The notes: generated by a model not told the origin, from the sequence alone. Counted from the first letter of the stretch, positions 10,236 to 35,867 are shown. The stretch: DNA of 64,000 bases from Candidatus Aenigmarchaeota archaeon LH_S7 (GCA_023659895.1 JAGXOL010000001.1:15757-79756), one strand, 5' to 3'. Numbers and translations are program-made.

Positions 10236-10901
10236 TTAAGCCAAAAAGGAGTATATTTTTATTATCCTTTCTTTACTGCTCTTACTTATTTTGAAAAATT
10301 TAAAAAGAGGTTTTTTTATAATATCTCGATTTGGTGCCTCACCCAAAAAGAAAAAAATTGATACTGCTAAAATAACTATAAAAGGTAAACTGCCTATATA
10401 ATAGAGAGCAGGAAAAGAAATATTAAACAAAAATATTGACCACAAAAAAGAAGAATTTAGAGAAATTTTCCACGAGTATTTTATATAATTATAAACAGAA
10501 AAAAGAAGATAACCTAGAAATCCAGCATCAATCGCTGAAAAACCTAAAATAGGTGGAAGATTTGGTAAAGTATAAACAATTAGCAAAGAATTGAGAATTG
10601 GTAGTATTGTAACAAATGTTAAGGTAACAACATAGAGCCTTTTTCTATTATTCTCAAACTTGAAAATCAAGAAGATAAATAAGAAGTAATAGATCAAATT
10701 TCCTGCAAAATGAAAAATCTCAGTATGTACAAAATTTGAGAAGTAAATGCTTATTAAAGTTGGATTTGATGGCTGCAAAATAAAACATTCTTGGGGGAAA
10801 AGAAAAAGAAAATTAAGAAAAAGCGGAATGAAAGTGAAGAAAATTAAATAGTCAATTTTTTGTCTTGGTTTTGTAGAACTATAATTCTTAAGCATTATCA
10901 A
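10236..10901 (-). CDS. polytopic membrane protein, possible CPBP/Abi-like intramembrane protease; last gene of defence operon
   Basis: About 6 predicted TM segments; VHTEIFHFAGN (HxxxN-like); start overlaps PLD-SNF2 stop as ATGA. Confidence 0.45.
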   Translation of the reverse strand: MIMLKNYSSTKPRQKIDYLIFFTFIPLFLNFLFLFPQECFILQPSNPTLISIYFSNFVHTEIFHFAGNLIYYFLFIFLIFKFENNRKRLYVVTLTFVTILPILNSLLIVYTLPNLPPILGFSAIDAGFLGYLLFSVYNYIKYSWKISLNSSFLWSIFLFNISFPALYYIGSLPFIVILAVSIFFFLGEAPNRDIIKKPLFKFFKISKSSKERIIKIYSFLA

Positions 10902-15923: not shown

Positions 15924-15932
15924 TTTAATTCC

Positions 15933-21100: not shown

Positions 21101-21788
21101 CAAGCCATTTCTTTTTTGAGATAAAATAGATAAACATTAATCTGTTCAGGAACTGTAAGGTAAATTCATGTGATTCTTTTCTTGGGATATTCTGTTTATT
21201 CACTTCATCCCTCAATGTAAAAAATATTTTCTTATAATCTTCAAAAAATGCTTCTGTTACTCTTTCAACGCTAAATGCTTTCTTCCATTTTCTCCAAACA
21301 TCACGCCAGTTAGTTTCTCCTTCATAACGAATATTCGAAAGAGTTTCAATAATAGTATAACCTTCTTTTTTGTTTATAATTTCGTCTCTATCTATAATCA
21401 ATTTTGTTAGTTTTAGTTTATGTTCGCCTTTTTCAGTTTTTTCACGATTCGGTAACATAAATACAATTTCAGAATAATCAGTTGCAAAAATCAATAAAAA
21501 GTGTAAATATTGTTTATCAAAAGCTGTTGTAACAGATCTTATAAAAGAAGGGTTCAATGTTTTTGTTTCAAGCAAAAAAACAGGTAGGTTCTCACCAAAA
21601 CTTGTAATTGAATACAAGTTCTTAATTCTTTGAACATCATCTTTTTTGAAATTAAAGGATTCTTTTTTTCTTTTCGTAGTTTTATAAGAATAGTTCAAAT
21701 GACTAAACAAAGTAAAAATATCATCTGCAGATTTAATTTTGCCAATATGCTGGTGTATTTTTCTCCTCAATCCTATATTATCTTCCAT
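18102..21788 (-). CDS. gamma-class N6-adenine DNA methyltransferase, large (BREX PglX / DISARM DrmMI / Type IIG-like)
   Basis: 1228 aa; GIFYTPRVEVDFM (motif X), VDPACGSGAFLVGLLN (motif I), IVIGNPPYVRQEK (motif IV NPPY); long N- and C-terminal extensions. Confidence 0.8.
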   Translation of the reverse strand: MEDNIGLRRKIHQHIGKIKSADDIFTLFSHLNYSYKTTKRKKESFNFKKDDVQRIKNLYSITSFGENLPVFLLETKTLNPSFIRSVTTAFDKQYLHFLLIFATDYSEIVFMLPNREKTEKGEHKLKLTKLIIDRDEIINKKEGYTIIETLSNIRYEGETNWRDVWRKWKKAFSVERVTEAFFEDYKKIFFTLRDEVNKQNIPRKESHEFTLQFLNRLMFIYFISKKKWLEYPKFVGWLWKSYKNLGKYNSNEFYEIWLKQIFLKAFNNRSNEITGYPEEVNRVISNSPYLNGGLFKENDLDKLKVEITDKLFQNIFDFFEKYNFTIKEDIPLDQEVAVDPQMIGYVYESLANVAEEIYDRNDLGIFYTPRVEVDFMCRRVIVEYLSKHLPDIPKDKIYHLVFDSPEEKEKLKKEFGDKKIWYEIERVLDNLSAVDPACGSGAFLVGLLNVLAELYRMVYANIKNDLTDFELKKRILQYSLYGVDVMPWASHAAELRLWLQLIVEGEFKKEELRKHPLLPNLNLNLRVGDSLIQEIGGLSFNLRTNEDIKPHLREQLDNLKQEKRKYFENSPTVKFKTPEAVRSEETRLFEEIIDERIEGLKKDTESLENNMKKQGKQVGLFNSEINVEAEVYLKEKEKINATEKEIQQFEEEIEKLKKIKELLKNPEKKPFVWDIDFAEIFGDKNGFDIVIGNPPYVRQEKISPPNKLKAEITLKDRKEYKEKLIKSVKNIFPIINKINKKSDYYTYFYFHGLGLLNEKGTFCFITSNSWLDVGYGRNLQEFLLRYAPVTAIYDNPKRSFAHADVNTIIALFGAPIIKDKRIEGLNVDGKKDWPMLNHTAKFVMFKKPFEEVLNTKNLIEIENAKVKTRGETITELVKNVKTTQDYRVFPILQGDLLEDGWEYPENYDKKDRFKAGSYEGNKWGGKYLRAPDIFYTILEKGKGKLVELGKIAKVSPGIKSGINKFFYLDKDKIKKLGIEKEYLKQILKTPKEYETIILNESNLRFYVLYCNKSKKQLKGTNILSYIEWAEKQKKDGIKYTEIPSVKGRNNWYSTGEVKAPDFIFSSQIGERFIVPFNNITCFLDYNLYGLYFKENNKENICCMLNSAISFLFYETLGRFSLGEGLNKPMIYEVRKFFIPNPNKINSSFLKKIFGKISKRKVHSIFEEFGLDPSKPIREQEPKPLPDRAELDKIIFDELGLTEEERKEVYWSVCELVKQRLEKAGSLRR

Positions 21789-22010: not shown

Positions 22011-22373
22011 ATGGCAGAAGTTAAGGGAGAACTAGGTCTTCTCCTTTGGTTGTTAATGGTAGCAATCCTGGCTTATGCAGGAGTTTCAGTGACATCAGGA
22101 TTTGTTGGTGGTATAGTGATTGCGTCAGCATGGCTTTTCGTGAGAAGCGCTTTGCAGAGCTTTGGTGTTAAAGATAAAACCGTACACAATTTGTTTTTAT
22201 CAGCAGCAGGTTTCGCTTTGTTTGCAGCATCCTTTGAATTACTTTTAGTAGCTGTTCAATCAATAGCAGGAGGGATGTTTTGGATTAATTATTTGATTTC
22301 ATTAGGCTATGTACTTTCATGGATAACTGCTTTGGTAGCTTCACTAACATTGGCTGTGAAAAACTTTTCTTAA
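22011..22373 (+). CDS. small integral membrane protein
   Basis: 120 aa, 3-4 hydrophobic helices. Confidence 0.35.
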   Translation: MAEVKGELGLLLWLLMVAILAYAGVSVTSGFVGGIVIASAWLFVRSALQSFGVKDKTVHNLFLSAAGFALFAASFELLLVAVQSIAGGMFWINYLISLGYVLSWITALVASLTLAVKNFS

Positions 22374-22394
22374 TTTTTTCTTTTTTATAAATCA

Positions 22395-23585
22395 AAGGCA
22401 AGAAAACTCCCGAATTTATTCGTAGAGATGAATTGCCCTTAAATAGTTTAAAAACATAATTAAATATGGTTAGAGTCAGAAAAACAATTAAATGTAAAAT
22501 AATAAAACCAACAGAGTTAAAATTAAAACATTTAAACAAAGAATATAATAATGTCCAAGAACTGCTACAATTAGAATCTAAAGGAATTGAATTTCTGCCA
22601 ATCTTTCATTCTCTAAAGAAAAAAGTTTATTCTGCTAACTTACAACAGGCTTTAAGATTTTACAAGAAGATTAAACCAAATAAAGAATATCCAATATCCT
22701 TTAGAAAGGATTTGTTAGAAGTCAGGAAAACAGATAACAAACTATCTAAATATTGGGTTAAAATACCTACTAAACAAAGAAAAGGTGGTTTAAAATTAGC
22801 AATTAAATCACAACCTTTTAATTTTAAGGATTATGAGATTTGTGAATCCAAACTATTTAAAAAGAAAAATAATTGGTTTTTAAATCTAACAGTTCAAAAG
22901 GAAGTTGAACTGAATAATACTTATGACTCTGTTCTTAGTCTTGATTTGGGACAGAAGTATATGGGCGTATCAGTGATGCATCCATCTACTTTAATGATTC
23001 CTAAATTCTACGGCAAAGAAGTCAGAGGAATAAGAAGAAACTACGACTATATTAGGAAGCAACTTGGCAAAAATAAACTACTTAAAGAAATAAAAAGATT
23101 TGGACAGAAAGAGCAAAGAAAAGTAACTGATTGTCTCCATAAAATCTCTAATGAAATAGTGGATTTGGCTCTAACCAGTAATTCTACTATTGTTGTTGGA
23201 GACCTGAAAGGGATTAGAAAATCAGCAAAAGGTAAAGGTAGAAAGTTCAATAGGATTGTTTCAAATATGCCTTATCTGGAGTTAATTCAAATGCTTGAAT
23301 ACAAAGCAAATTGGGAAGGAATAAGGGTAATTAAAGTAAATGAAAGAGGAACAAGTCATACCTGCTCCAAATGTGGTAATGAAGGTTCAAGACCAAAGCA
23401 GGGAGTTTTCAATTGTTCTGTTTGTGGATTAAAAGACTATAATGCAGATGTGAATGGTGCTTCTAATATAGGTAATAAATTGTCTTCTGGGTATATCTTG
23501 GAAGATGGGGCAACCTTGACTTTGCCCGAAACTGATGTATATGAGACATCAGAATCTTCTGACTTTAGTCGTGGAGAATGTCAAA
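22395..23585 (+). mobile_element. IS200/IS605-family TnpB-only (IS1341-like) element, copy 1
   Basis: About 70 nt left end and about 40 nt right end plus ORF are about 90% identical to copy at 34509-35689; left-end hairpin GGCAA...TTGCC. Confidence 0.7.
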
Positions 23586-23590
23586 AATAA
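22466..23590 (+). CDS. tnpB: TnpB (OrfB) RNA-guided nuclease-family transposase-associated protein
   Basis: 374 aa; RuvC-like motifs and C-terminal zinc finger CSKCG...CSVCG...NADVNGASNI. Confidence 0.8.
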   Translation: MVRVRKTIKCKIIKPTELKLKHLNKEYNNVQELLQLESKGIEFLPIFHSLKKKVYSANLQQALRFYKKIKPNKEYPISFRKDLLEVRKTDNKLSKYWVKIPTKQRKGGLKLAIKSQPFNFKDYEICESKLFKKKNNWFLNLTVQKEVELNNTYDSVLSLDLGQKYMGVSVMHPSTLMIPKFYGKEVRGIRRNYDYIRKQLGKNKLLKEIKRFGQKEQRKVTDCLHKISNEIVDLALTSNSTIVVGDLKGIRKSAKGKGRKFNRIVSNMPYLELIQMLEYKANWEGIRVIKVNERGTSHTCSKCGNEGSRPKQGVFNCSVCGLKDYNADVNGASNIGNKLSSGYILEDGATLTLPETDVYETSESSDFSRGECQK

Positions 23591-24237
23591 TGCTCTACGT
23601 AATAAATTTTAAAACCTATGAACAAGCCACAGGTACAAACAGTATAAGATTGGCTAACATAATCTCTGAAATAAAAAATAAATTAGAGGCAGACATACTC
23701 GCAAGCCCACAAATTGCTGATTTGGAAAAAATAAGCAAGATAACACCTTCCTTGGCACAGCATGTTGATCCTATTAATTATGGTTCTCACACAGGTCATG
23801 TCTTGTCGCAATCAATAAAAGAAGCTGGTGCACAAGGTAGTTTAATAAATCATTCTGAAAGAAAACTTTCTCTGGAGAAAATAAAATCTTGTATTGATAA
23901 ACTGAAATCTCTTGAAATGAAATCAATCTGTTGTGCAGGTGATTTGAAAGAAGCAATGGAAATAGCAAAGTTTGCTCCTGATTACATAGCTTATGAGGAC
24001 CCTGAGTTGATAGGCAGTGGAAAGTCAATTTCTAAGTACAAGCCAGATAACATTGAAAGATTTGTTAGTGTTTTGAAGGATATAAATTCTGAGATTATTC
24101 CTCTTTGTGGTGCTGGTATTTCAACTAAGGATGATGTAGAATCTTCCAAGAAATTAGGTGCTAAAGGTGTTTTAGTTGCTTCTGCAGTTGTTAAGGTAGA
24201 AAATCAAAGAGAAGCTTTGTTGAATTTGATTTCTTAA
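23590..24237 (+). CDS. tpiA: triosephosphate isomerase (archaeal type); alternative start at 23578
   Basis: INFKTYEQATG, HVDPINYGSHTGH, CGAGIST motifs; start overlaps tnpB stop (TAATG). Confidence 0.85.
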   Translation: MLYVINFKTYEQATGTNSIRLANIISEIKNKLEADILASPQIADLEKISKITPSLAQHVDPINYGSHTGHVLSQSIKEAGAQGSLINHSERKLSLEKIKSCIDKLKSLEMKSICCAGDLKEAMEIAKFAPDYIAYEDPELIGSGKSISKYKPDNIERFVSVLKDINSEIIPLCGAGISTKDDVESSKKLGAKGVLVASAVVKVENQREALLNLIS

Positions 24238-24268
24238 TTATTTAATTTTAACAGTCTAATTATTTTAT

Positions 24269-24603
24269 AGCCCCGTCGTCTAGTGGCCAAATTCTTCTTT
24301 CTTTAGAAAAAAAGAAGCTTTTGATAGGAAGAAAGAAAAGGAAGGCTAAACTCCCGTTTTGGATGGAACCTTCCTCATAAACCTTGGGTTTATGGGGCCC
24401 CGAAAAACAAGTTTTTCGAGGTTTTAAAAAGGTTCCAGGGTTATGGATGCTGGCCTTTGGATATCAAAGGTTGGAGAAGCTAAAAAATTATTTTGGCTTC
24501 TATGATAGAAGACAGCCAGAGACCGCGGTTCGAATGGAACATCAAAAAGATAAAATTTACCAAATCCAAAAGAAAATAAGTTTCGGGAATCCGCGCGGGG
24601 CTA
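24269..24603 (+). tRNA. tRNA-Gln(UUG) interrupted by three introns: D-loop 24287-24440 (154 nt), anticodon loop 24461-24513 (53 nt), T-loop 24536-24590 (55 nt)
   Basis: Exons AGCCCCG-TC-GTCT-AGTGG | TTAT-GGAT-G-CTGGC-CTTTGG | A-GCCAG-AGAC-CGCGG-TTCGAAT | CCGCG-CGGGGCT-A sum to 73 nt; A1:U72 and anticodon loop CUUUGGA as in archaeal tRNA-Gln. Confidence 0.65.
24378..24437. repeat. conserved about 55-nt hairpin element, copy 1 (inside tRNA-Gln intron 1)
   Basis: GGTTTATGGGGCCCCGAAAAACAAGTTTTTCGAGGTTTTAAAAAGGTTCCA about 90% identical to 28705-28763; internal stem CGAAAAAC/GTTTTTCG. Confidence 0.5.
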
Positions 24604-24956
24604 TTAAATGTGACTTCCTCTCCCTGAATAAATTCAGGAGCTTCCTTAACCAAAACACTGTTTTGAATACAGAAGGCTGGCGAGGTTCTAAAGTCACTAA
24701 CAAAACTTACTATAGCAGAGGTTTTGGTCTGACACGCTTTAGTTTAGGGCTGAGTCACCTTTTTCAGATGCCTTATTTCACTATTGTAGGGTCAGCAACC
24801 CCGTCTTCCAAGATATACCCAGAAGACAATACAGGACATGTCCGTCCATATTTAATTATGTTTTAAAAGTATTAAAGGACAATTGAGCTACACGATTTAA
24901 ATCAGGAGTTTTCTTGCCTTTGGTTAAATATAAATAATTTAAAACAAAATAATTTT

Positions 24957-25808
24957 ATGAAGAAAGGTGTTAGCTCAGTAATGAGTATTATTTTATTAGT
25001 TGTTGTGGGAACCTCTTTGTCAGGTGTGGCTTATCATACTTATACTTCTATGACTAAGGATATTATTTCTGTTCAGGAAAAGCAGATAATAGGTGAGTTA
25101 GAGTTAGAAGAGTCAAAGGTAAGAATAGAAAAGGTTGGATATTGTAGTGTTAATATTAGGAATGTGGGAGACAATGATATAGATGTTAGTTCTTTAGAGG
25201 TTTATATAAATGATAAACATTTTAAAATTCCTACTACAGAAAATATTTTAGAAAAAAATGAGAACATCAGAATTAAGATAACTAGAGATATGTTGTCTGA
25301 TTTGGAAGCAGATATTTCTTTAAAAGTTGGAGGAAAAGTTAATGATATTGGAAGAATTATCTGTCCAATTCCAGTAAATGGTACCTTAAGAAAAAATAAT
25401 TGCAAGTCTGATGAAGTTTGTGTAATTGCTTTTTCTGCTCTTAATAATTCCCATGTTGAAGATTGTTCAGAAGGAAATTATCTTTATAAATTGTGTGTAG
25501 ATAATATTAATAATGTAACGATTACTTCTTCTGATTGTTCTGATGAAGAAGGTAGTCTTATTACTATGTCAGGGAATACAAATGCTCAAGTTGAGGAATA
25601 TCATTTACCTATAACAGGTTTTGCAACCAAGAAAAATGTTTGTATAAATTCTTCTTTAGGAGATGTAAATTGTATTTATGGTAATTGTTCGTCAAGTTAT
25701 TATAATCCGCTTTTTTCAATTTCAAACTTAACAATTTCAGAGTCAGCAAACGCTCATGTAGGAGATAAAGAGCACTATAACAAAGTAGTTTGCTGTAGGA
25801 TTCAATAA
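24957..25808 (+). CDS. secreted Cys-rich protein with archaeal type IV pilin-like (class III) signal peptide
   Basis: N-term MKKGVSSVMSIILLVVVGTSLSG; about 20 Cys in C-terminal two thirds. Confidence 0.4.
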   Translation: MKKGVSSVMSIILLVVVGTSLSGVAYHTYTSMTKDIISVQEKQIIGELELEESKVRIEKVGYCSVNIRNVGDNDIDVSSLEVYINDKHFKIPTTENILEKNENIRIKITRDMLSDLEADISLKVGGKVNDIGRIICPIPVNGTLRKNNCKSDEVCVIAFSALNNSHVEDCSEGNYLYKLCVDNINNVTITSSDCSDEEGSLITMSGNTNAQVEEYHLPITGFATKKNVCINSSLGDVNCIYGNCSSSYYNPLFSISNLTISESANAHVGDKEHYNKVVCCRIQ

Positions 25809-25840
25809 AAAGATTTTATTATAAATAAGAAACTATAATT

Positions 25841-26284
25841 ATGGTAGAAGAGTATGAAGTGGTTCCTATCACTCCTTTGAGAAAAATAGAAAAAAGGTTG
25901 GAAAAAATGGAGCAAGGATCTCCTGGATACAATGCTGTTTTGAGAGACTTGACAGAAATGATGAAGGAGAATCAAAAAGTAGTTGATAATCTGGTGAATA
26001 CGAACTCAGAACTTATATCAAATATAGGAACTTTATCAGAGAAGTTGGGTGAGCTGACTAAGAAGTTTGATGATTTTATGGATAGCATAGAAGTTGCGGA
26101 AACGAGTGAAGAACCAGAAGAATTTAAAACTTTGAAGGAACAGAACAAGAAATTGGAGGACACGAACCAGGAATTATCTGATAGACTGAAGAAACTGGAG
26201 AAGAGAACGAAAATGGCAGCTTTGAGTAGGTATTACTATCAAAGACCTCAACAACAAGGAAGTCAGAAAGGAGGGCAGTATTAA
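25841..26284 (+). CDS. coiled-coil hypothetical protein
   Basis: 147 aa, heptad-rich, Q/G-rich tail. Confidence 0.35.
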   Translation: MVEEYEVVPITPLRKIEKRLEKMEQGSPGYNAVLRDLTEMMKENQKVVDNLVNTNSELISNIGTLSEKLGELTKKFDDFMDSIEVAETSEEPEEFKTLKEQNKKLEDTNQELSDRLKKLEKRTKMAALSRYYYQRPQQQGSQKGGQY

Positions 26285-26286
26285 TT

Positions 26287-26625
26287 ATGGGAGAAGAAAA
26301 AAAGAAGGTGAATTTTGATATAGACCAAAATAAAGAGGGTTTTTACGCGAATAATATAGCAATTTTTAATAATCCTACTGAATTTGTCCTTGATTTTACT
26401 CAAGTCACACCAAGAATAAATATGGTTGAGGAAAAACAAATAGTTACTTATGTGGTCAAGCATAATGCTGTTGTCCTAGAACCAAAGCAGGCAAAAAATT
26501 TCTTTAATTTGTTAAAAGAGAATATTGAGAGATACGAGAAGAAATTTGGTAAGATACAACTACCAAAAGGAAAAAAGCAGAAGAAAGAGGGTTTACCAAA
26601 GAATTTTTCTGATTATATAGGTTAA
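26287..26625 (+). CDS. hypothetical protein
   Basis: 112 aa, start 3 nt after preceding stop. Confidence 0.35.
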   Translation: MGEEKKKVNFDIDQNKEGFYANNIAIFNNPTEFVLDFTQVTPRINMVEEKQIVTYVVKHNAVVLEPKQAKNFFNLLKENIERYEKKFGKIQLPKGKKQKKEGLPKNFSDYIG

Positions 26626-26654
26626 TTTGTTTTTATTTTTAAATAACTTTAATT

Positions 26655-26813
26655 ATGGCAAAGGAGAAAAGAAGAATGCCTATGACAAATGCTGGATTAA
26701 TAAATTATTCAGAGGAGGTAGAGGAAGGTATTAACTTAAGACCAGAGATTATATTAGGGGTTGGTTTTGGCATTTGTGCTCTTGTCTTGATATTGAGATT
26801 TGTGTTGATTTGA
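26655..26813 (+). CDS. preprotein translocase Sec61 beta / archaeal SecG-like small subunit (not in ORF track, 52 aa)
   Basis: MAKEKRRMPMTNAGLINYSEEVEEGINLRPEIILGVGFGICALVLILRFVLI: conserved AGLIxY motif then single C-terminal TM helix. Confidence 0.6.
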   Translation: MAKEKRRMPMTNAGLINYSEEVEEGINLRPEIILGVGFGICALVLILRFVLI

Positions 26814-26882
26814 TTTTTGTATTTTTTATGAGGTATTAGCTTATTCTCTATAATCTCTTCTTTTTTTAGAGGTAATAGATAT

Positions 26883-27263
26883 TTATTTTTTGTTCTCATC
26901 TTTTTTACTTGTTTTTTTCTCTTTACTCTTTTCCTCTTTTTCAGTTTTTTTCTTCTCTTTTACCTTGACCTCTTTTTCGTTCAAAACTTTTATTTTGTTT
27001 TTTGAGCAGTATTCTTGGATTTTTGCCCTCTTTTTATTTCCTATTTTGGAACTAATTACAATTTCCTTGGGTTTTTTTTCTTCTAGTTCATTTAGATTGC
27101 TTATAAATGGAATCTCCTCTTTTTTTGGTGTTTTATATCCTATTTTTGGTTTAAGGCCTTTCTTACCTTTTTTTATTTTGTTGGAAATCCCACGGGGCTT
27201 TCTCCACTTTCTTTTCAGTCTTTTAAACCTCCCTTCTTCAGATCTTTCAAATATTAATTTCAT
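26883..27263 (-). CDS. rpl32e: ribosomal protein L32e with Lys-rich C-terminal extension
   Basis: KRLKRKWRKPRGISNKIKKGKKGLKPKIGYKTPKK...NKIKVLN matches eL32 core. Confidence 0.7.
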   Translation of the reverse strand: MKLIFERSEEGRFKRLKRKWRKPRGISNKIKKGKKGLKPKIGYKTPKKEEIPFISNLNELEEKKPKEIVISSKIGNKKRAKIQEYCSKNKIKVLNEKEVKVKEKKKTEKEEKSKEKKTSKKDENKK

Positions 27264-27291
27264 AACATATAGAGAAATTTTATAAAGTAGT

Positions 27292-28173
27292 TCATTTTGT
27301 GGTTACAATAGGGTTTTTCAACACTAGAAGGGTGTGTTCAGAATGTGATATTTTGGAATCTCCTTTTAAAATTCTGTGTACACCCAAACAATTCCTGTCT
27401 GTTAGCTCCTTTAATGCAAGTCTTAATTTTATTCTACTTATATCTAACCAGCGATCTGAGAAAGGCATCCCTTCCCTATCTCTAAATTTTTCAATTATCT
27501 CGCGAGCTTCTTTTGTTCTACAAGGTTTTTCTTGCATCAGGGAATATGTTAAAGCGCGGTCATCATCTTTCTCTTTAATGAAATTTCTCCCTCGGGTTGC
27601 GAAGGGCTCTATTGCTATTGTTTGACCTTCTTGCAATTTGTAATGATAATCATTGTTATAGTTTGGAACTCTTGGCTCTGCGTGAACTAAAAATCTTTCC
27701 AATCCGTGGCCTGTAAGGTTTGTTATAGGGTTTAAATTGTAGTTTTTAATTGTTTCTTCTATTTTGGTTGCTATCTCATTTACATCTATTCCTGGCTTAA
27801 CAAGTTTTATTGCCTCCTGTAGAGCTTTGTCAGTTGCTTCCACTAAAATTTTATCTTCTTCTGAAAGTGCAACTGTGCAAGCAGTGTCCGCAATATAACC
27901 CTCAAAAGAAACACCAACATCCAACTTAACCAAATCATTTTCCTTGATTGTTGTTTCATCCCCTTTGTTAGGTGAGTAGTGAGCAGCAATTTCATTAATT
28001 GAGATGTTTAAAGGCCAAGCAGGGATTCCCCCTAATTCGCGAGTCCTTTTTTCAACTTGCTCAGCAATGTCAATAATCTTAGTTCCTGGCTTCACCATGG
28101 ATTTACCTTCCTCTCTAACAGTTTTAGCAATCTCACCAGATTTCTTGTATTTGTCAATAATCTTTTGGTCCAT
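27292..28173 (-). CDS. map: methionine aminopeptidase, type 2 (archaeal)
   Basis: 293 aa pita-bread fold motifs (VKPG, DIA, HYSPN, FEGYIADTA, HGLERF). Confidence 0.85.
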   Translation of the reverse strand: MDQKIIDKYKKSGEIAKTVREEGKSMVKPGTKIIDIAEQVEKRTRELGGIPAWPLNISINEIAAHYSPNKGDETTIKENDLVKLDVGVSFEGYIADTACTVALSEEDKILVEATDKALQEAIKLVKPGIDVNEIATKIEETIKNYNLNPITNLTGHGLERFLVHAEPRVPNYNNDYHYKLQEGQTIAIEPFATRGRNFIKEKDDDRALTYSLMQEKPCRTKEAREIIEKFRDREGMPFSDRWLDISRIKLRLALKELTDRNCLGVHRILKGDSKISHSEHTLLVLKNPIVTTK

Positions 28174-28233
28174 TTTTAATTTAGGATAAAAATTATTTAG
28201 ATTACAGATAAAGTCCCAAGAAAGCTACCGATT

Positions 28234-28671
28234 TTAGTGAGGGGAGAGTGTCAATTTTTTCTGTTCTTTTTCTACTACTGCTTTTTTTTCTCCAGAGGGT
28301 TTTTTGATTGTTCCACCAGCTTTGCTTATTTTTTCCTCAACTGTTTTGCTCCATTTATCCGCAATTATTTCAACTTTTTTATTTAACTCTCCTTCTCCAA
28401 GAAGTTTCATATATCCAAGTTCTTTTAAATTGATTTTGTTTCCTTTGAATTTTTCCAAATCCTTCAAGTTAATTACTTTTTCTTCTCCTTCCTTCTTCAA
28501 GGTTCTGTGAACAAAGTAATTAGGATTTTCTTTTAAGGTCTTAAAAATCTTGTGAGTTTTTGAGCCAGCCATTCCACTACCTCCTTTGTTACCTTTTCCT
28601 CTGTGCCTTTTTTTGCGGCCATAGCCACAGCTCCTTGAACCACGCATCTTCTGAGTTTTAGTTTTTCCCAT
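28234..28671 (-). CDS. rpl15: ribosomal protein L15 (uL15)
   Basis: MRGSRSCGYGRKKRHRGKGNKGGSGMAGS glycine/basic N-terminus of uL15. Confidence 0.8.
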   Translation of the reverse strand: MGKTKTQKMRGSRSCGYGRKKRHRGKGNKGGSGMAGSKTHKIFKTLKENPNYFVHRTLKKEGEEKVINLKDLEKFKGNKINLKELGYMKLLGEGELNKKVEIIADKWSKTVEEKISKAGGTIKKPSGEKKAVVEKEQKKLTLSPH

Positions 28672-28704
28672 AAGAACTTTTTTTATGAAATAATTTAAAA
28701 AGGT

Positions 28705-28763
28705 TCTACCGAAGGTTTATGGGGCCCGAAAACAAAGTTTTTCGAGGTTTCTAAAGGCTTCCA
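28705..28763. repeat. conserved about 55-nt hairpin element, copy 2 (between PIN-ATPase-KH gene end and rpl15 start)
   Basis: GGTTTATGGGGCCCGAAAACAAAGTTTTTCGAGGTTTCTAAAGGCTTCCA, homolog of 24378-24437. Confidence 0.5.
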
Positions 28764-28765
28764 AA

Positions 28766-30400
28766 TCACTTCTCAAGAATGTCTATATGAATCCCTAATC
28801 TATCTTCTAATTTGTCTATCTTTTTCCCTCTCTTCCCAATCAATTTAGGGATTGCTTCTTTGCTGATATAAATTTTAACCTTGTTACTAGAAACAAATTC
28901 TATTTTAGCTCTTGGGTCATATCTTTCAATTTCCCTTAGGACTTGTTCTCTTGCTAATTTTTCCACACCTGAATCTTCTTTCTCTTTCTCCTCAATAGGT
29001 ACAACAATTGTTTCCTCCCCATAGCTGTAGATCTCATATTCCAGTTTTCCTGTTTCAAATGAGTGGACTTCAACTAGAGGACGTGCTAAATCAGCTTCCT
29101 GCATCCCTGATGGAACTCTTACCTGCAGATTCAAGGAGTAAATTTCTTTTATTTCCCCATCCTCAACAAAGATTATTGTGTCTATAATGTTTTGTAACAT
29201 TCCTAGTTCAACCTTTCTTATGAATCTTTGTATTGCATCAATAGGATGGGAAGCATGAATTACACCTATCATTCCAACCCCAGCAAGCCGTAAATCACTA
29301 AAAACCCTAAAATCATAAGAAGTGCGGATTTCATCAAAGATTGTGTAATCAGGTCTAACCAACAACAGGATGTCCGCGGTTTTACCAAAATCCTTTAGCA
29401 AAGGAGCGTATTGAGTTATTTTTTTATCCACCTGCAAGTCCCTAGGACTTTCCATAGTCTTGACTACTTTATTCTTTTTGAGATAAAATTCTGCCATAGA
29501 AGCTGCTAGAGTTGATTTTCCACTTCCAGGAGGACCTGAAATTAAAATTCCCTCTGCTTTCTTTTCAACCCTTTCTTTCAATTTATCAGAAAGTTTGTAA
29601 TCATCTAAATCTAATTTTGCAATTGGTCTTATAATAGTTATTTCTTCCACACTTGAGAAGGGGGGTCTTGTAATAGAAATTCTCATGTCCCTAATTTGCA
29701 AGACCATTGCCCCGTGTTCTTCAAACTCAACAAATCCATATTCTTCCCTTCTCGCTTCTGTTAAAATATTTCTTGACAAACTTTCAAACTCATCTTTAGT
29801 TAGTTCCTCTTTTCTTAGTTTTTCAAGTCTTATTTTACCTGGCTTACCTCTTTTTGCCAGGGGGACACAATTGACTTTGAAATGGAGGGACATTGTGTTT
29901 TCCGTTAAAAAAGGAAGGAACTCAAGTTTCTGCTTCTCCTTTTCAACTTCCAAATATTGGACTTTTATATTATATACCTCAGCCACCAATGCTTGCACAA
30001 GGTCTCTTGTATACAAAACAGCTTTGTATTTCTTTGCTACATCCCTTATCATTGAATCTATGCTACCAGATTTAGCTAACTTAATTTCCTCCATGGTGGC
30101 TTTCCTTCCAACAAACTGCACTTTTATTTTCCTGTTGTTCAATTCTTTTATTTCCTCTAACCCAAGAAATCCTATTTCCTTACCTTTGTTCGCTTGTGCT
30201 TGCAGTTCATCAACAACAACTTCAGGAATTATAACTTTTATGTTTTTCAATTCTCCGCGATCTATTAATTCTGTAAGTTTTTTGGAGATTAGTATGCTTG
30301 TGTCAGGGACTATCTTTTTTTCTTTTGTGTTTTTATTTTGTTCAGTTTTAGCACTCTCTCTACTCTTTTTCTTAGTTGTTTCTTCTTTCTTTTTAATCAT
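28766..30400 (-). CDS. PIN-domain / P-loop ATPase / KH-domain protein (COG1855 family)
   Basis: N-term PIN (IVPDTSILI), Walker A ILISGPPGSGKSTLA, C-terminal KH (LIGKRGKKIDKLEDRLGI). Confidence 0.75.
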   Translation of the reverse strand: MIKKKEETTKKKSRESAKTEQNKNTKEKKIVPDTSILISKKLTELIDRGELKNIKVIIPEVVVDELQAQANKGKEIGFLGLEEIKELNNRKIKVQFVGRKATMEEIKLAKSGSIDSMIRDVAKKYKAVLYTRDLVQALVAEVYNIKVQYLEVEKEKQKLEFLPFLTENTMSLHFKVNCVPLAKRGKPGKIRLEKLRKEELTKDEFESLSRNILTEARREEYGFVEFEEHGAMVLQIRDMRISITRPPFSSVEEITIIRPIAKLDLDDYKLSDKLKERVEKKAEGILISGPPGSGKSTLAASMAEFYLKKNKVVKTMESPRDLQVDKKITQYAPLLKDFGKTADILLLVRPDYTIFDEIRTSYDFRVFSDLRLAGVGMIGVIHASHPIDAIQRFIRKVELGMLQNIIDTIIFVEDGEIKEIYSLNLQVRVPSGMQEADLARPLVEVHSFETGKLEYEIYSYGEETIVVPIEEKEKEDSGVEKLAREQVLREIERYDPRAKIEFVSSNKVKIYISKEAIPKLIGKRGKKIDKLEDRLGIHIDILEK

Positions 30401-30470
30401 AGTCTTGATTTTGGCTAAGCTTTTCTATTAAAATAGAAAAGTTCCATAATAAATTGAATAAAATAATATT

Positions 30471-31076
30471 ATGGATTTGAGTATAGTTGAAGGGGAATAT
30501 CTTGTAAAAACTGCTAGGGAGGCAATAGATTATAATTTGAAAAATTTTTCACTTATGAAACCTTCCCCTGTAAGTTATCCTAAGCTCAAAGAGAAAAGAG
30601 GCTTATTTTGTACATTATTGAAATATCCTGATGCAGAGCTTAGGGGTTGTATAGGTTTAATAAACCCAGATACAGACTTGGTTAATGCAACCATAGAAGC
30701 AAGTTGTTCCGCAATCCGAGACCCAAGATTTTATCCTTTGAAGGAGGATGAGCTAAAAAAAGTTACTATTGAGCTAAGTATTTTAGGGGATTTTGAGAAA
30801 ATTTTAGTTTATGAACCTAGAGATTACTTGAATCAAATCAAGATAGGGAAGGATGGACTCTTTTTAAAGTACCATTTCTATAGTTCTTTGTTCCTACCTC
30901 AAGTACCTGTGGAACAAAAATGGGATACTAAAACATATCTGTCGCAGCTTTGCAAGAAAGCAGGTTTGAGAGAAGGTGCTTGGCTGGATAAAGCAATAGG
31001 ACTTTACAAGTTTAAGACTCAAAGCTTTGCTGAATCAGAACCAGGTGGAAAAATTTTTGAGAGAAAGTTAACTTAA
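30471..31076 (+). CDS. AMMECR1-domain protein
   Basis: RGCIGLINPD signature. Confidence 0.75.
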   Translation: MDLSIVEGEYLVKTAREAIDYNLKNFSLMKPSPVSYPKLKEKRGLFCTLLKYPDAELRGCIGLINPDTDLVNATIEASCSAIRDPRFYPLKEDELKKVTIELSILGDFEKILVYEPRDYLNQIKIGKDGLFLKYHFYSSLFLPQVPVEQKWDTKTYLSQLCKKAGLREGAWLDKAIGLYKFKTQSFAESEPGGKIFERKLT

Positions 31077-31118
31077 TAGAAATCAGAACAGAGAATAAAA
31101 ACAAATAAAAAGAATTTT

Positions 31119-31988
31119 ATGTTTATAGAAATAAATAAGGTAATTAAAAAAATAAAAGAAGAAGATTATAAGAGAATTCTTATTCAGGTCCCAGAGGGTT
31201 TAAAAACAGAGGTTGTAAAAATTGCCGATAAAATAGAAAAACAAACCAAGGCACAGGTTATTATATCTGTAGAGCCCTGCTATGGAGCTTGTGATTTGCG
31301 ATTGGATGAAGCTAAACTTTTAGGTTGTGATTTGATTTTGCATTTTGGACATATTGATTTTGGTGTTAAAACAGAAATTCCTGTTCTTTATATTCCAGTT
31401 TATTTTGATTTAGAAATTCCAGAGAAAGTGAAAAAAGAGATTTCTGAAATAAAGGAGAAAAATTTAGCGATTTATTCTTCAGAACCCTTTAAAAAAGTTC
31501 TTGATGATTTGGGGAATTACCTGCTAAAAATAGGGAAGAATGTTGTTTCAAAGAAGATTATTCTTGGTTGCTCAGAAGTGAAAAATTCTGCTGAGGCAAA
31601 TATTTTCGTTGGCTCTGGAAAATTCCATCCTTTTGTCTTGAGAGGAAAAACTTATTTTCTTGATTTAGAAAAAAATAGGTTGGAAGATCTGACAGGGGAA
31701 GTTAAAAAAGAAGAAATGAAAAAAAAGGCGAGAGTTTTAAAATTTAAGGAAGCAAAAAAGGTTGGAATTCTTGTTTCAACAAAACCCGGGCAGTTTTACA
31801 AGGATTATGAGATTATAAAAAAGAAGATTGAGAGGGAAGGAAAAGAAGGAAGAATCTTGGTTTTGGATGAAATTACAAATGAAAAATTGGGTAGATTTGG
31901 TTTTGATGTTTATCTAAATACAGCCTGTCCAAGAATTCTAGATAATCATTTTGACAAACCAATTGTTAATCTAAAAGATTTATTTTAA
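31119..31988 (+). CDS. dph2: diphthamide biosynthesis enzyme Dph2-like (2-(3-amino-3-carboxypropyl)histidine synthase)
   Basis: N-term ILIQVPEGLK...EPCYGACD, conserved Cys-containing domains. Confidence 0.6.
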   Translation: MFIEINKVIKKIKEEDYKRILIQVPEGLKTEVVKIADKIEKQTKAQVIISVEPCYGACDLRLDEAKLLGCDLILHFGHIDFGVKTEIPVLYIPVYFDLEIPEKVKKEISEIKEKNLAIYSSEPFKKVLDDLGNYLLKIGKNVVSKKIILGCSEVKNSAEANIFVGSGKFHPFVLRGKTYFLDLEKNRLEDLTGEVKKEEMKKKARVLKFKEAKKVGILVSTKPGQFYKDYEIIKKKIEREGKEGRILVLDEITNEKLGRFGFDVYLNTACPRILDNHFDKPIVNLKDLF

Positions 31989-31995
31989 TTATTTT

Positions 31996-32529
31996 ATGGT
32001 AACAGCAAAAGAGAAAAGGGCAAGAGAATTATTTGAGCAGAGATATAAACCAAAAGAAGTTTCTGAAATTCCTCTTGGCAAGGGAACTAAAATCTCCGAT
32101 AGCACAATTAAAGGATATTACACTGCTTGGAGAAAAGGGTATGAAAATAATTCTGAGTATAGAAAAGATTTAGCAAGAATAAAAGAGTCTGAAAATCGTT
32201 CTGAGCATAGAGACTATTTGTCGAGAGAGGAAGGGTTTAAAAGTTATTCTGAATATCGAAAATATTTAAGAGATCCATATTTTAGAGAAATTTGGGATTC
32301 AGATGGATTAGATGAGGTAGGAAGAGATAATCACTATGTTTTAATGTTAAGGTTTTCTGAGATGAAGGATAAATTAGAAAGTGAGGCAAAAGGAGTTGGA
32401 GAAATAGAGGGAACAGAAGAATACGAGAAACTAGAAGAAATTCTTCCAAAAAAAGGTAATGAAAGAATAAAATATATTGGTAAATTAAAAAGAGGAGTAG
32501 AAATCCTAAACTATCAGGGAAAAGTATAA
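31996..32529 (+). CDS. hypothetical protein with short repeated SEYRK-type motifs
   Basis: NSEYRKDL / RSEHRDYL / YSEYRKYL repeats. Confidence 0.3.
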   Translation: MVTAKEKRARELFEQRYKPKEVSEIPLGKGTKISDSTIKGYYTAWRKGYENNSEYRKDLARIKESENRSEHRDYLSREEGFKSYSEYRKYLRDPYFREIWDSDGLDEVGRDNHYVLMLRFSEMKDKLESEAKGVGEIEGTEEYEKLEEILPKKGNERIKYIGKLKRGVEILNYQGKV

Positions 32530-32531
32530 TT

Positions 32532-32813
32532 ATGGTAACCTCGCCTCTCTCTATTTTGTTTGAAATATTTTTTGTAATTCTCTACAATACGGTCAATATA
32601 GTTATTATTGTTTTTAATTTGTTTATAAAACTGCTCTATTCCCTTAGTTTTGGTATTTCTGTTGCTGGACCTCTTGGAATAGTTCTTGCATTTGTTATTT
32701 TGATGCCTTTAACTTATTTCCTGGTAAAATTTTTCTTTGGTAGTGCAAAGATTGCTTTAATGACCCTTTCTATCTTGTTTCTATTTTTGATAATTATTTT
32801 TTTATCTGTGTAG
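32532..32813 (+). CDS. small membrane protein
   Basis: 93 aa, three hydrophobic helices. Confidence 0.3.
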   Translation: MVTSPLSILFEIFFVILYNTVNIVIIVFNLFIKLLYSLSFGISVAGPLGIVLAFVILMPLTYFLVKFFFGSAKIALMTLSILFLFLIIIFLSV

Positions 32814-32865
32814 GTTTGGATTATTACACTATTTATTTAAATCCTTTAAATTTGATATTGTAATT

Positions 32866-33252
32866 ATGCCGGAGTTTTTTTACAGGGGTAAAAAAGTAGA
32901 AAATTTAAGTAGAGAAGAATTTATAGAACTATTACCCTCTAGAGAGAGGAGGAAGTTTAGGAGAGGTTTGACTGAGCAGGAAACCAAATTTCTTGAAAAA
33001 CTTGAAAAATACAAGGAGCAGAAGGGAAAGAAATTTGTTAAGACCCATTGCAGGGAAATGATTGTTTTACCTGAAATGGTAGGTCACAAGGTTGGGGTTT
33101 ATAATGGTAAAGAATATATACCTATTGAAATTAATGAGTGGATGGTTGGACATTGTTTAGGTGAATTTGTTTTAACTAGGAAGGAAATCAAACACACTGC
33201 TCCAGGTATAGGAGCTTCTCGTGGTACTAAATTTGCATCAACCAGGAAATAA
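32866..33252 (+). CDS. rps19: ribosomal protein S19 (uS19)
   Basis: GHKVGVYNGKEYIPIEINEWMVGHCLGEFVLTRK...HTAPGIGA. Confidence 0.85.
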   Translation: MPEFFYRGKKVENLSREEFIELLPSRERRKFRRGLTEQETKFLEKLEKYKEQKGKKFVKTHCREMIVLPEMVGHKVGVYNGKEYIPIEINEWMVGHCLGEFVLTRKEIKHTAPGIGASRGTKFASTRK

Positions 33253-33254
33253 GT

Positions 33255-33965
33255 ATGTATAGTAAGGAAGTAGGAGGGAATATAGCTAAGGCGTGCACGC
33301 ACAATGCGAGAGTTTCAGTTAAGAACGCAAAACCTGTGTGCAGAGCAGTTAGAGGAATATATTTAGAAAGAGCAAAGAAGTTTCTGGAAGATGTTGTTAA
33401 ACAAAGAAGGAACATTGGAGGAAAATATTACACCAAATCCACAACAGAAATATTGAACTTAATAAAAAGTGCTGAAAAAAATGCGGAGTTCAAGAATCTT
33501 GATTTAAAAAATGTTTACATTGCTCACATCTCTGCCTTGGATGGGACAAGGATGTTAAGAAGAAGACACAAGAATAGTTTAGGGATGAAGTTGAAAACCG
33601 CAAATTTGGAAATTATCTTGAAGGAGAAAGGTGGTTTGGAGAGAGTAGAGAAAACAGAGAAAACAAAGAAAGATAAGATAAAGGAACAAGTTAAAAAGGC
33701 AGAATCAGAAAAGAGCAAAACTAAGGAGGAAGAAAAAGTTAAAAAAGAAGTGAAACCTGAACAAAAGGCACAAGAAAAGAAAGAAGCTGAGCAAGAACTA
33801 AAAAAACAGGAAAAGGAAGAAGAGGAAACTGAACAAAAAGAGAAACAGGAAAAAACAGAAACTAAAAAGGGAAAAGAAGGACAAAAACAAGAAACAAAAA
33901 AGGAAACTGAAAAGACAGAGGAGAAAAAAGAAAAAGCTAAAAAGGAAGCTGAAATAAAGGAATAA
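33255..33965 (+). CDS. rpl22: ribosomal protein L22 (uL22) with about 90-aa K/E-rich low-complexity C-terminal extension
   Basis: uL22 core (ARVSVKNAKPVCRAVRG...YIAHISALDG...) followed by KEEEKVKKEVKPEQKAQEKKE... tail. Confidence 0.8.
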   Translation: MYSKEVGGNIAKACTHNARVSVKNAKPVCRAVRGIYLERAKKFLEDVVKQRRNIGGKYYTKSTTEILNLIKSAEKNAEFKNLDLKNVYIAHISALDGTRMLRRRHKNSLGMKLKTANLEIILKEKGGLERVEKTEKTKKDKIKEQVKKAESEKSKTKEEEKVKKEVKPEQKAQEKKEAEQELKKQEKEEEETEQKEKQEKTETKKGKEGQKQETKKETEKTEEKKEKAKKEAEIKE

Positions 33966-33994
33966 GCGGAAAATCTATATCTAAATCATAATTC

Positions 33995-34387
33995 CTAATG
34001 ATTTGACAGGATTAGGACTGATGTACCGTAAAGAGCATTCTTAAAATTATTCAACCCTAAATCCTGTTCTTGTTCATTCCCTCCTTTTATTAACTTCCTT
34101 GAATCAGCAAATTTAAAAACTAAATCTTTATATCTTGTATTATCTGGAATAGAAGCCAAATAATATCTATATTCATGTCTTTTTTCATTATTTAAATATT
34201 CTATAAAAAAATTTCCCATATCTTGGCTAGTCCTATCATCAACTTCTCCAAAAGCTTTATAAGCAGCATAAGCTTCTGCAATAGTAGAGTCACTAATCAA
34301 TTCTTTTCTCTCCATGGAATAGACAGATTTAAGACTTGTGTAACACTTCAACAATGATTCCTTAGCTTCCTCCTCAAAATTTACCAT
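33995..34387 (-). CDS. hypothetical protein
   Basis: 130 aa ORF. Confidence 0.3.
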   Translation of the reverse strand: MVNFEEEAKESLLKCYTSLKSVYSMERKELISDSTIAEAYAAYKAFGEVDDRTSQDMGNFFIEYLNNEKRHEYRYYLASIPDNTRYKDLVFKFADSRKLIKGGNEQEQDLGLNNFKNALYGTSVLILSNH

Positions 34388-34508
34388 AATTTATAAATCT
34401 AATTAATATTAATAGCTTTCTATAAAATTAGTTAGACCCTTTTTGGAACTTCCTTTGTTTCTTTAGTTTTAATTTGTAGTTATCTCTTGTCCTTCTTTTA
34501 TAATTAAA

Positions 34509-35689
34509 AAAGGCAAGAAAACTCCCAAATCGTGTAGAGGATTTGCCCTTAAATAATTTAAAAACATAATTAAATATGGTCTGTGTTAGAAAAACGATTA
34601 AATGCAAGATAATAAAGCCAACAGAGTTAAAGTTGAATCAATTAAACAAAGAAAATAACAATATTCAAGAACTGCTACAATTAGAAAAATTTGGTTTAGA
34701 TTTTCTACCTATTTACAATTCTCTTAAAAAGAAGGTTTATTCTGCAAATATACAACAAGCCTTAAGATTTTATAAAAAGATTAAATTAGATAAAGAATAT
34801 CCAATATCCTTTAGAAAAGATTTGTTAGAGATTAGGAAAACAGATAACAAACTTTCAGAGTATTGGGTTAAAATACCTACTAAACAAAGAAAAGGTGGAC
34901 TAAAGTTAGCAATTAAATCACAACCTTTTCTCTTTGAAGATTATGAGATTTGTGAATCTAAATTATTTAAAAAGAAAAATAATTGGTTTTTAAACCTAAC
35001 AGTTCAAAAAGAAGTTGAACTGAATAATACTTATTCCTCTGTTCTCGGTCTTGATTTGGGACAGAAGTATATGGGAGTATCGGTGATGCAACCATCTGCT
35101 TTAATGACTCCTAAATTCTACGGCAAAGAAGTCAGAGGAATAAGAAGAAAATACGACTATATTAGAAAGCAACTTGGTGAAAAGAAACTGCTTAAAGAAA
35201 TAAAAAGGTTTGGACAGAAGGAGCAAAGAAAAGTAACTGATTGTCTCCATAAAATCTCTAATGAAATAGTAGATTTGGCTCTAACCAGTAATTCTACTAT
35301 TGTTGTTGGAGACCTGAAAGGGATTAGAAAATCAGCGAAAGGCAGAAACTTCAATAGAATAATCTCAAATATGCCTTATTATCAATTAACACAAATGCTC
35401 GAATACAAAGCAAATTGGAGTGGGATAAGAGTGGTTAAAGTGAATGAAAGGGGAACAAGTCATACTTGTTGTAAATGTAGTTCTAAAGGTTCAAGACCAA
35501 AACAAGGAGTTTTCAATTGTTCTGTTTGTGGACTAAAAGACTACAATGCTGACATAAATGGTGCTACTAATATAGGTAATAAAGTGTCTTCTGGGTATAT
35601 CTTGGAAGATGGGGCAACATTGACTTTGCCCGAAACTGGTGCAATATGACATCAGAATCTCTTGACTTTAGTGATGGGAGAGGGTCAAA
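34509..35689 (+). mobile_element. IS200/IS605-family TnpB-only element, copy 2
   Basis: Homologous ends and ORF to copy 1; conserved sequence continues about 40 nt past tnpB stop (candidate omega/reRNA and right end). Confidence 0.7.
34576..35649 (+). CDS. tnpB: TnpB (OrfB) family protein, paralog of 22466-23590
   Basis: 357 aa, about 90% aa identity to copy 1; zinc finger CCKCS...CSVCG. Confidence 0.8.
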   Translation: MVCVRKTIKCKIIKPTELKLNQLNKENNNIQELLQLEKFGLDFLPIYNSLKKKVYSANIQQALRFYKKIKLDKEYPISFRKDLLEIRKTDNKLSEYWVKIPTKQRKGGLKLAIKSQPFLFEDYEICESKLFKKKNNWFLNLTVQKEVELNNTYSSVLGLDLGQKYMGVSVMQPSALMTPKFYGKEVRGIRRKYDYIRKQLGEKKLLKEIKRFGQKEQRKVTDCLHKISNEIVDLALTSNSTIVVGDLKGIRKSAKGRNFNRIISNMPYYQLTQMLEYKANWSGIRVVKVNERGTSHTCCKCSSKGSRPKQGVFNCSVCGLKDYNADINGATNIGNKVSSGYILEDGATLTLPETGAI

Positions 35690-35867
35690 TTCCGAGAGGA
35701 GCAAGTAAGGTAAACACTGTATAAATTATAAACCCGAATACACCAAGAACTAATACACCCAAAGCTATGACTTTAGAATAATCTCTATATTCTTGCTTAT
35801 CTGGTTTTGAAGCTATAGTCATGATTCTCTTGGATTGATTCAAAAATGATTTTACTCTCTTCAACAT
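35685..35867 (-). CDS. secE: preprotein translocase SecE / Sec61 gamma
   Basis: 60 aa; SKPDKQEYRDYSKVIALGVLVLGVFGFIIYTVF matches Sec61-gamma C-terminal TM. Confidence 0.6.
   Translation of the reverse strand: MLKRVKSFLNQSKRIMTIASKPDKQEYRDYSKVIALGVLVLGVFGFIIYTVFTLLAPLGI

Follow-up and report, generated by a model that had tools for sequence, protein, structure and literature searches.

Insertion sequences of the IS200/IS605 family, which include IS608 and the IS1341 subgroup, lack terminal inverted repeats and have, close to each end, imperfect hairpins that contain a bulged T and resemble each other; their autonomous members encode a Y1 transposase with an HUH motif (TnpA). In the work of Barabas and Chandler, IS608 is said to use TTAC as its target and TCAA as its right-end cleavage site. 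The guide of the RNA-guided nuclease TnpB is the DNA just 3' of the right end of its element. In ISDra2, the guide is carried by an omega-RNA, or right-end element RNA (reRNA), that extends from within the 3' end of tnpB to the right-end boundary and folds into a multi-stem scaffold whose pseudoknot uses nucleotides just 5' of the guide. Here, we describe two tnpB-bearing elements, copy 1 and copy 2, in a 64,000-nt stretch (hereafter the window, with positions counted from its first letter) of Candidatus Aenigmarchaeota archaeon LH_S7 (GCA_023659895.1 JAGXOL010000001.1:15757-79756), and compare their ends, nuclease and predicted guide RNA with those of characterized systems.

We conclude that both copies are most probably non-autonomous insertion sequences of the IS200/IS605 family (IS1341-type), a kind of element that is already well known and of which this is a new example. 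In each, as read from the DNA, the left end contains a TnpA-type hairpin and a likely promoter, and the rest consists of a compact tnpB and an overlapping putative omega-RNA gene of ~103 nt. Copy 1 is a complete TnpB-only element of 1196 nt (22389-23584, plus strand), with boundaries set by a multi-locus alignment and by an empty site in a related contig, and copy 2 is a complete TnpB-only element of 1187 nt (34502-35688, plus strand). A first-pass annotation of this DNA had proposed two TnpB elements with conserved ends; both are real, and the present boundaries refine their extents. It had also called them near-identical at about 90%, a fair figure for an overall identity of 86.9% (1046 of 1204 columns), with the left ends at 81%, the open reading frames (ORFs) at 87% and the last 103 nt at 88%, although near-identical overstates it for copies whose synonymous divergence (dS) is 0.46.

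In pairwise alignment, the homology starts just after a TTAT (22385-22388 and 34498-34501), takes in the AAAGGCAAG region ahead of the start codons, continues to ...GTCAA (ending at 23584 and 35688), and gives way to unrelated sequence outside both boundaries. The 60-nt flanks share about 50% identity, which is the AT-rich background. A left-end 17-mer matches the window three times, compared with 0.5 expected, and a tail 25-mer twice, compared with 0 expected; chance as the source of the shared ends is excluded.

The left end of copy 1 (22389-22465, plus strand) consists of a nested hairpin followed by a conserved A/T-rich stretch. The GGCAA...TTGCC hairpin reported earlier is real, pairing 22397-22401 with 22433-22437, and it encloses a second, inner hairpin (CTCCCGAA-TTTA-TTCG, with CTCCCGAA/TTCG.AGAG at 22407-22427). 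The A/T-rich stretch TTAAATAG is conserved at -27 to -20 from the tnpB ATG and is kept even in two metagenomic loci that have no left-end hairpin (L085/L086), and from this position and conservation it may be an archaeal promoter for a leaderless tnpB. These two loci retain the promoter-like stretch, ORF and right end, and share their right flank and not their left flank.

We aligned nine loci, comprising the two window copies, three loci at unrelated positions on contigs of metagenome-assembled genomes (MAGs), and four metagenomic loci with 70-84% protein identity. Across this alignment a TTAT or TTAC immediately precedes the left end. On the right, homology breaks off abruptly at ...GGAGAGTGTCAA in the seven closest loci and at the equivalent ...GTTCA(C) in the two loci of 70% identity, and one further site (L183) has the same junctions. 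The homology is therefore not confined to the ORF, as it would be for ordinary paralogs: both copies share their conserved ends with seven further loci at other genomic positions, and a related genome has an empty site at tpiA. Throughout the family the right-end termini read ...TCAA, TCAC or TCAT. Terminal inverted repeats are absent, and the subterminal hairpins are alike at both ends: the left-end inner hairpin resembles the right-end hairpin within each element and varies between elements (34 distinct left ends, 80+ loci). In 32 of the 34 distinct left ends a TTAY tetranucleotide is found 13-18 nt before the left-end hairpin, as against 8 of 34 in a control interval, and the flanks of the insertions show no target duplication. 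We take the TTAT preceding each copy on the plus strand (22385-22388 for copy 1, directly after which the homology to other copies begins, and 34498-34501 for copy 2) as the transposon-adjacent motif (TAM) and TnpA target site.

These features follow IS608 and the IS1341 subgroup closely: terminal inverted repeats are missing, each end has a nearby imperfect hairpin with a bulged T that resembles the one at the other end, insertion falls just 3' of a tetranucleotide (TTAY here, TTAC in IS608), and the right end reads TCAA. Unlike IS608, the window elements reside in a DPANN (Aenigmarchaeota-like) archaeon, have no TnpA in cis, and encode a protein of only 357 aa with less than 25% identity to characterized TnpBs.

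Comparison with related DNA supports the junctions. In a syntenic contig (L180), whose TpiA is 81% identical and whose gene order is the same over at least seven genes, a conserved 120-aa gene is separated from tpiA by 33 nt with no element between them, and the tRNA downstream of tpiA is directly followed by the next gene. From this gene spacing, both the copy 1 site and the site of a miniature derivative described below are empty in L180. At the copy 2 site, removing the insertion yields a SecE C-terminus (...APLGI-stop) identical to the present one; the insertion thus left SecE unchanged. The original TAA stop of secE was the complement of the TTAT target; today the gene stops at a TGA read from the strand opposite the terminal TCA of copy 2 (35685-35690). 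A search of the window for empty sites with the flanks of four further loci (L081-L084) found none.

The tnpB of copy 2 (34576-35649, plus strand) encodes 357 aa with a match to Pfam Cas12f1-like_TNB (E 2e-20) and is followed by 39 nt of tail past its stop codon, in agreement with the ~40 nt of conservation first noted there. In copy 1 (22466-23590, plus strand; 374 aa; Cas12f1-like_TNB, PF07282, E 2e-21) a 1-nt insertion abolishes the usual stop, so that the ORF gains 17 codons, runs through the right end and terminates in a TAA that overlaps the tpiA ATG at 23590 (TAATG). This overlap had been noted before and is borne out as the product of that insertion; an insertion of the same type occurs at L081. 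The neighboring gene is confirmed as tpiA by PF00121, with its true start at this ATG, and the placement of copy 2 beside secE is confirmed by PF00584 (35685-35867, minus strand).

TnpB from the window finds its best sequence matches in the PDB among Cas12f proteins and TnpBs (E 1e-19). Its AlphaFold model, with a mean predicted local distance difference test score (pLDDT) of 85 and a predicted TM-score (pTM) of 0.76, retrieves AsCas12f with Foldseek at a TM-score of 0.65, together with ISFba1 TnpB, ISDra2 TnpB and Fanzor2; identity to characterized TnpBs is below 25%. In HMMER alignments, the catalytic RuvC-II Glu of Cas12f falls on the Gly of an IVVGDL motif (G245 in copy 2). Besides this residue, the key positions of copy 2 TnpB are D160, E291, D326 and a CxxC...CxxC zinc finger, and among 41 family members D160, E216, G245, E291, D326 and the four zinc-finger Cys are invariant. 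E291 lies 46 residues past G245, directly after the strand spanning residues 286-290 in the model, and the RuvC-III motif reads NADxN.

This arrangement has been described. "Derived" TnpBs have exchanged the catalytic Glu for Gly, compensated by a Glu on beta-5, and have an NADxN RuvC-III motif (PMC10691335); the alternative Glu lies about 45 residues away (PMC10691335, PMC10530073). From the alignments and the structural model, the window TnpBs belong to this known rearranged RuvC-II class, with Gly on the beta-4 strand and the invariant E291 after beta-5. They share with the rearranged "TnpB2" of Thermoplasma volcanium (TvTnpB) and the RIIr clades (Altae-Tran et al. 2023) the Gly in place of the RuvC-II Glu, the invariant Glu at +46 after beta-5, the NADxN motif, a C4 zinc finger and an archaeal host, and they differ in their TAM, which appears to be TTAY here compared with NTGAC for TvTnpB. 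As TvTnpB, an archaeal protein of this type, carries out TAM-dependent DNA cleavage without collateral activity (PMC10530073), G245 does not indicate a dead enzyme. TldR-type nuclease-dead regulators, which have lost RuvC catalytic residues and are tied to a particular target gene such as fliC or oppF, do not fit: D160, E291 and D326 are invariant, and the neighboring genes differ at every locus.

All tnpB pairs, copy 1 versus copy 2 included, show a ratio of nonsynonymous to synonymous divergence (dN/dS) of 0.14-0.22 at dS 0.18-0.78, indicating functional proteins under selection.

The right ends encode a conserved RNA. RNAalifold applied to 14 of them predicted four hairpins in the last ~103 nt, with double changes in 15 of 27 pairs; the right-end hairpin is stem 4, and the stem-3 loop contains the stop codon of tnpB. 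About two thirds of the scaffold lie inside the ORF, the overlap with the ORF 3' end being ~65-115 nt. Of 86 related loci searched with a covariance model built from these 14 sequences (R1), 85 have the motif at the 3' end of tnpB and in the same orientation as the gene. In the R1 alignment, which comprises 79 distinct sequences, pairing is kept in 95.4% of cells, as against 36-48% when partners are slid, and 26 of the 27 pairs show compensatory changes. A pseudoknot joins the stem-2 loop (TTGAC) to the terminal GTCAA, with GTGAAC/GTTCAC and ATGAGCC/GGCTCAT as its counterparts elsewhere; over the terminal 6 nt it is 92.3% paired, compared with 5.6-38% for slid partners, and three of its six pairs are compensatory. 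The minimum-energy fold of the copy 2 scaffold gives the same four stems (z = -2.5).

In the window, the scaffolds occupy 23482-23584 in copy 1 (plus strand; stems 1-4 and pseudoknot, ending in the TCAA that we take as the transposon-encoded motif (TEM); R1 106 bits) and 35586-35688 in copy 2 (plus strand; tnpB stop in the stem-3 loop; R1 105.5 bits). The tail proposed at the outset as an omega-RNA or reRNA is the last third of a covarying omega-RNA that ends exactly at the right-end boundary; the scaffold is thus ~103 nt and not the 40-nt tail alone. It shares several traits with the ISDra2 reRNA: overlap with the 3' end of tnpB, a terminus at the right-end boundary, a multi-stem scaffold with a pseudoknot that uses the nucleotides just 5' of the guide, and a guide that would come from flanking DNA. 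Its conserved scaffold, of about 103 nt with four hairpins, is smaller than that of ISDra2; the 150 nt upstream hold no further conserved helix, and no Rfam family matches it at gathering or E-value thresholds.

The alignment of right ends, a step suggested with the initial proposal, therefore defines four hairpins and a pseudoknot and allows guides to be predicted. By the TnpB rule these would be the 16-20 nt past each right end: AAATAATGCTCTACGTAATA for copy 1 (23585-23604, plus strand), which spans the tpiA start codon, and ATTCCGAGAGGAGCAAGTAA for copy 2 (35689-35708, plus strand), which is antisense to the 3' end of secE. Neither predicted guide has a second target in the window beyond a trivial 3-mismatch match arising from tRNA acceptor-stem symmetry. 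Guides that match only their own flank fit homing to the vacated donor site (PMC10055086). Two related loci have two consecutive R1 matches downstream of a single tnpB (L153, 1703-1818 and 1828-1952; L154, 1486-1601 and 1611-1735), the second scoring 29.5 bits, which may reflect right ends in tandem or an additional guide RNA gene.

As stated in the first-pass annotation, no TnpA is adjacent to either copy, and the absence extends to the whole window: Pfam scans of 27 ORFs found no Y1 TnpA, and tblastn with five family-specific TnpAs against the window gave a best hit of E 0.009 within a helicase gene and no TnpA. Among 78 more distant loci (44-58% TnpB identity), 16 have an adjacent Y1 TnpA of 129-157 aa with the HUH motif PDH[ILV]HL and a C-terminal Y..Q, placed just upstream in the same orientation or divergently. 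As in IS200/IS605, autonomous relatives thus carry a Y1 HUH TnpA. Its presence in distant relatives places the family in IS200/IS605, and its absence from the window marks the window copies as non-autonomous.

The family occurs at many sites. The window is AT-rich and archaeal, with an intron-containing tRNA and short archaeal TpiA and SecE proteins, and the nearest named homologs of its TpiA (64-65% identity) belong to Candidatus Aenigmarchaeota/Aenigmatarchaeota in the DPANN group. The closest TnpB relatives (88-93% identity) are on the MAG contigs GCA_023658935.1, GCA_023658875.1 and GCA_023659905.1, and at least about 12 near-identical TnpB proteins are spread over different contigs. Their neighbors are unrelated (GTPase, eRF1, amine oxidase and peptidase A24), with different genes at every locus. 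A protein search of genome contigs with TnpB returned only distant matches of at most 38% identity, mostly bacterial. Relatives at 70-84% identity on JGI/ENA metagenome contigs (L085-L096, L097/L098) lie amid many small ORFs and N6/N4 DNA methylases, surroundings that look virus- or plasmid-like.

A third, gene-less member of the group lies between the two copies. At 24610-24929 on the minus strand we found a 320-nt derivative resembling a palindrome-associated transposable element (PATE) or a miniature inverted-repeat transposable element (MITE), preceded by TTAT (24933-24930) and ending in GTCAC. Its left end is ~80% identical to those of copies 1 and 2, with the promoter-like stretch, the tnpB ATG and the 17-mer with one mismatch; 19 nt after the ATG, with no protein gene, comes stem 1 of an omega-RNA-like right part. 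R1 matches stems 1-2 (E 7e-7), with a 41-nt loop in stem 2. By eye we also recognize a stem 3 (CTAAAG/CTTTAG), a stem-4 hairpin (CTCCTGAA-TTTA-TTCAGGGAG) and a pseudoknot (GTGACT/AGTCAC); as the folding energy is no better than that of shuffled sequences (z = -0.67), these three come from manual alignment alone. With its GTCAC terminus and enlarged loops, the right part resembles a different sub-lineage from that of copies 1 and 2. The element lies directly against the 3' end of a tRNA gene and is missing from the orthologous L180 site; its junctions are supported by the 46-nt spacer left when it is removed at TTAT|...|ATTTAAT, compared with 47 nt in L180.

PATEs with omega-RNAs for use in trans have already been described (PMC10055086). 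Like those of Geobacillus stearothermophilus (Meers et al. 2023), the 320-nt element keeps both ends and an omega-RNA-like gene and has no protein gene; unlike them, it is archaeal, takes its right part from another sub-lineage, and has statistical support for stems 1-2 only. A 40-nt solo right end, CCGATTTTAGTGAGGGGAGAGTGTCAA (28215-28254, plus strand), consists of stem 4 and the terminal motif only and now encodes the last seven codons of a ribosomal protein gene on the minus strand (28234-28671). The full R1 model is not significant here (E 1.7), so this relic is identified by sequence similarity only. The miniature copy, the relic and the RuvC-II Gly had all been missed by the first-pass annotation.

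Taken with what is established for characterized relatives, from which RNA expression, guide use, cleavage and mobilization in trans are extrapolated, this anatomy suggests a mechanism. TnpB would bind the four-hairpin pseudoknotted scaffold, whose 3' extension, transcribed from flanking DNA, would serve as guide. A Y1 TnpA acting in trans would excise the element, and the rejoined site would consist of TTAY followed by the guide match. The miniature element, having kept its ends, promoter and omega-RNA-like gene, would need both TnpA and TnpB in trans, and the fragment at 28215-28254 would be a decayed right end.

Several observations weigh against this reading of the copies. No TnpA occurs in the 64 kb or beside any close relative (at least 53% identity), which leaves present-day mobility unproven. 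The hairpins that TnpA would recognize are partly degraded, with one broken pair in the left-end hairpin of copy 1, and a 5-nt deletion in the left-end inner hairpin and mismatches in the inner part of right-end stem 4 in copy 2, so that the copies may no longer move. With dS at 0.46 between them, they are also old. The reconstructed empty tpiA site measures 20 nt, compared with 33 nt in L180, and because the L180 ortholog is only 81% identical this junction is approximate and not proven to the nucleotide. Nuclease activity in this clade is a prediction, and we infer the expression, processing and guide length of the omega-RNA. A competing view is that the elements are immobilized and co-opted, with the host keeping TnpB and its RNA for a non-transposon job such as RNA-guided binding or regulation and, at copy 1, for control or expression of tpiA, whose promoter region the insertion has split. 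It would account for purifying selection on old copies with no TnpA nearby and for the degraded end hairpins; moreover, copy 1 separates from the tpiA ATG a TATA-like stretch that is contiguous with it in L180, its ORF shares a TAATG with tpiA, and the tpiA start falls inside its predicted guide. We nevertheless consider co-option unlikely. The catalytic residues and zinc finger are invariant, unlike in nuclease-dead TldR-type proteins; there is no conserved gene partner, since close relatives sit at unrelated loci; the TAATG overlap is not specific to tpiA, as the 1-nt insertion is also found at L081; and the guides match their own flank only. A narrower proposal, which we rate as quite unlikely, makes copy 1 part of a tpiA expression unit, in which tpiA, cut off from its TATA-like region, would be transcribed from the element promoter, perhaps translationally coupled through TAATG, and modulated by TnpB on the omega-RNA scaffold upstream of the tpiA start. 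If true, such a unit would show TnpB at an early stage of domestication, in a reduced DPANN genome without a cis TnpA.

The same lack of TnpA in the window and the degraded hairpins of copy 2 could instead mean that the elements are decaying relics, in which ORFs and RNA are non-functional and conservation reflects recent common ancestry; the right-end relic and the deletion derivative nearby show that decay does happen here. Yet both ORFs are intact, dS of 0.18-0.78 with dN/dS of 0.14-0.22 speaks for long-term selection on the protein, and the RNA pairs are maintained by compensatory changes, making this explanation very unlikely. That the best PDB sequence and fold matches are Cas12f raises the question of a miniature CRISPR-Cas12f-type effector rather than a transposon nuclease, but neither a CRISPR repeat-spacer array nor any other cas gene occurs in the window, both tnpB genes are enclosed by IS200/IS605 ends, and relatives carry Y1 TnpA; we regard this as extremely improbable. 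Non-autonomous IS1341-type elements or domesticated RNA-guided nucleases had both been offered as readings initially. The evidence favors the former and not the latter, given the intact rearranged catalytic set, TnpA-type end hairpins, TAM and TEM motifs, many insertion sites, and relatives with Y1 TnpA.

Beyond the elements themselves, the surrounding DNA holds further features. A minus-strand restriction/helicase cluster (10898-21788) encodes a 1228-aa Eco57I/MmeI-type methylase, two unannotated proteins, a DUF4365 protein, and a 1065-aa protein with phospholipase D (PLD) nuclease and SNF2 helicase domains, a composition that appears DISARM-like or type ISP-like. The description of copy 1 as bordering a defense island holds loosely, as the conserved 120-aa gene (22011-22373) intervenes. 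In L180, PGK stands beside this gene in place of the cluster, and the cluster may therefore be an insertion.

Between tpiA and the miniature element, a GC-rich segment (24269-24603, plus strand) resembles a tRNA-Gln(UUG) gene interrupted by three introns: one in the D-loop (~155 nt), one at position 37/38 (~53 nt) and one in the T-loop (~54 nt). Neither ARAGORN nor Rfam detects this candidate, ARAGORN calls the hand-spliced version tRNA-Gln(ttg), and the exon blocks are conserved in L180, apparently with four introns there. A ~60-nt GC-rich repeat (24385-24440 and 28705-28765, plus strand; 84% identical over 43 nt), with GGGGCCC and a perfect hairpin (CGAAAAAC-AA-GTTTTTCG), has one copy within the first intron of this tRNA and the other in intergenic DNA beside the ribosomal protein gene. 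An Rfam tRNA at 8043-8154 (plus strand, 39.4 bits), not reported by ARAGORN, contains an intron, judging from its 112-nt length. Elsewhere, a 126-nt tandem duplication (59624-59885; 2.1 copies, 96% identity) lies within a minus-strand ORF (59411-60718).

The window elements provide one more case of tnpB under selection without a nearby transposase and leave current understanding unchanged. R1 offers a way of annotating right ends and guides in similar genomes, and small TnpB/omega-RNA systems are candidate genome-editing tools. What the window elements add is a TnpB/omega-RNA family with clear limits, found in DPANN archaea and on virus-like contigs. Its defining features are the TAM TTAY, TCAA/TCAC as terminal motif, a nuclease of 357 aa with a rearranged RuvC domain, and a ~103-nt pseudoknotted scaffold that is unusually compact.

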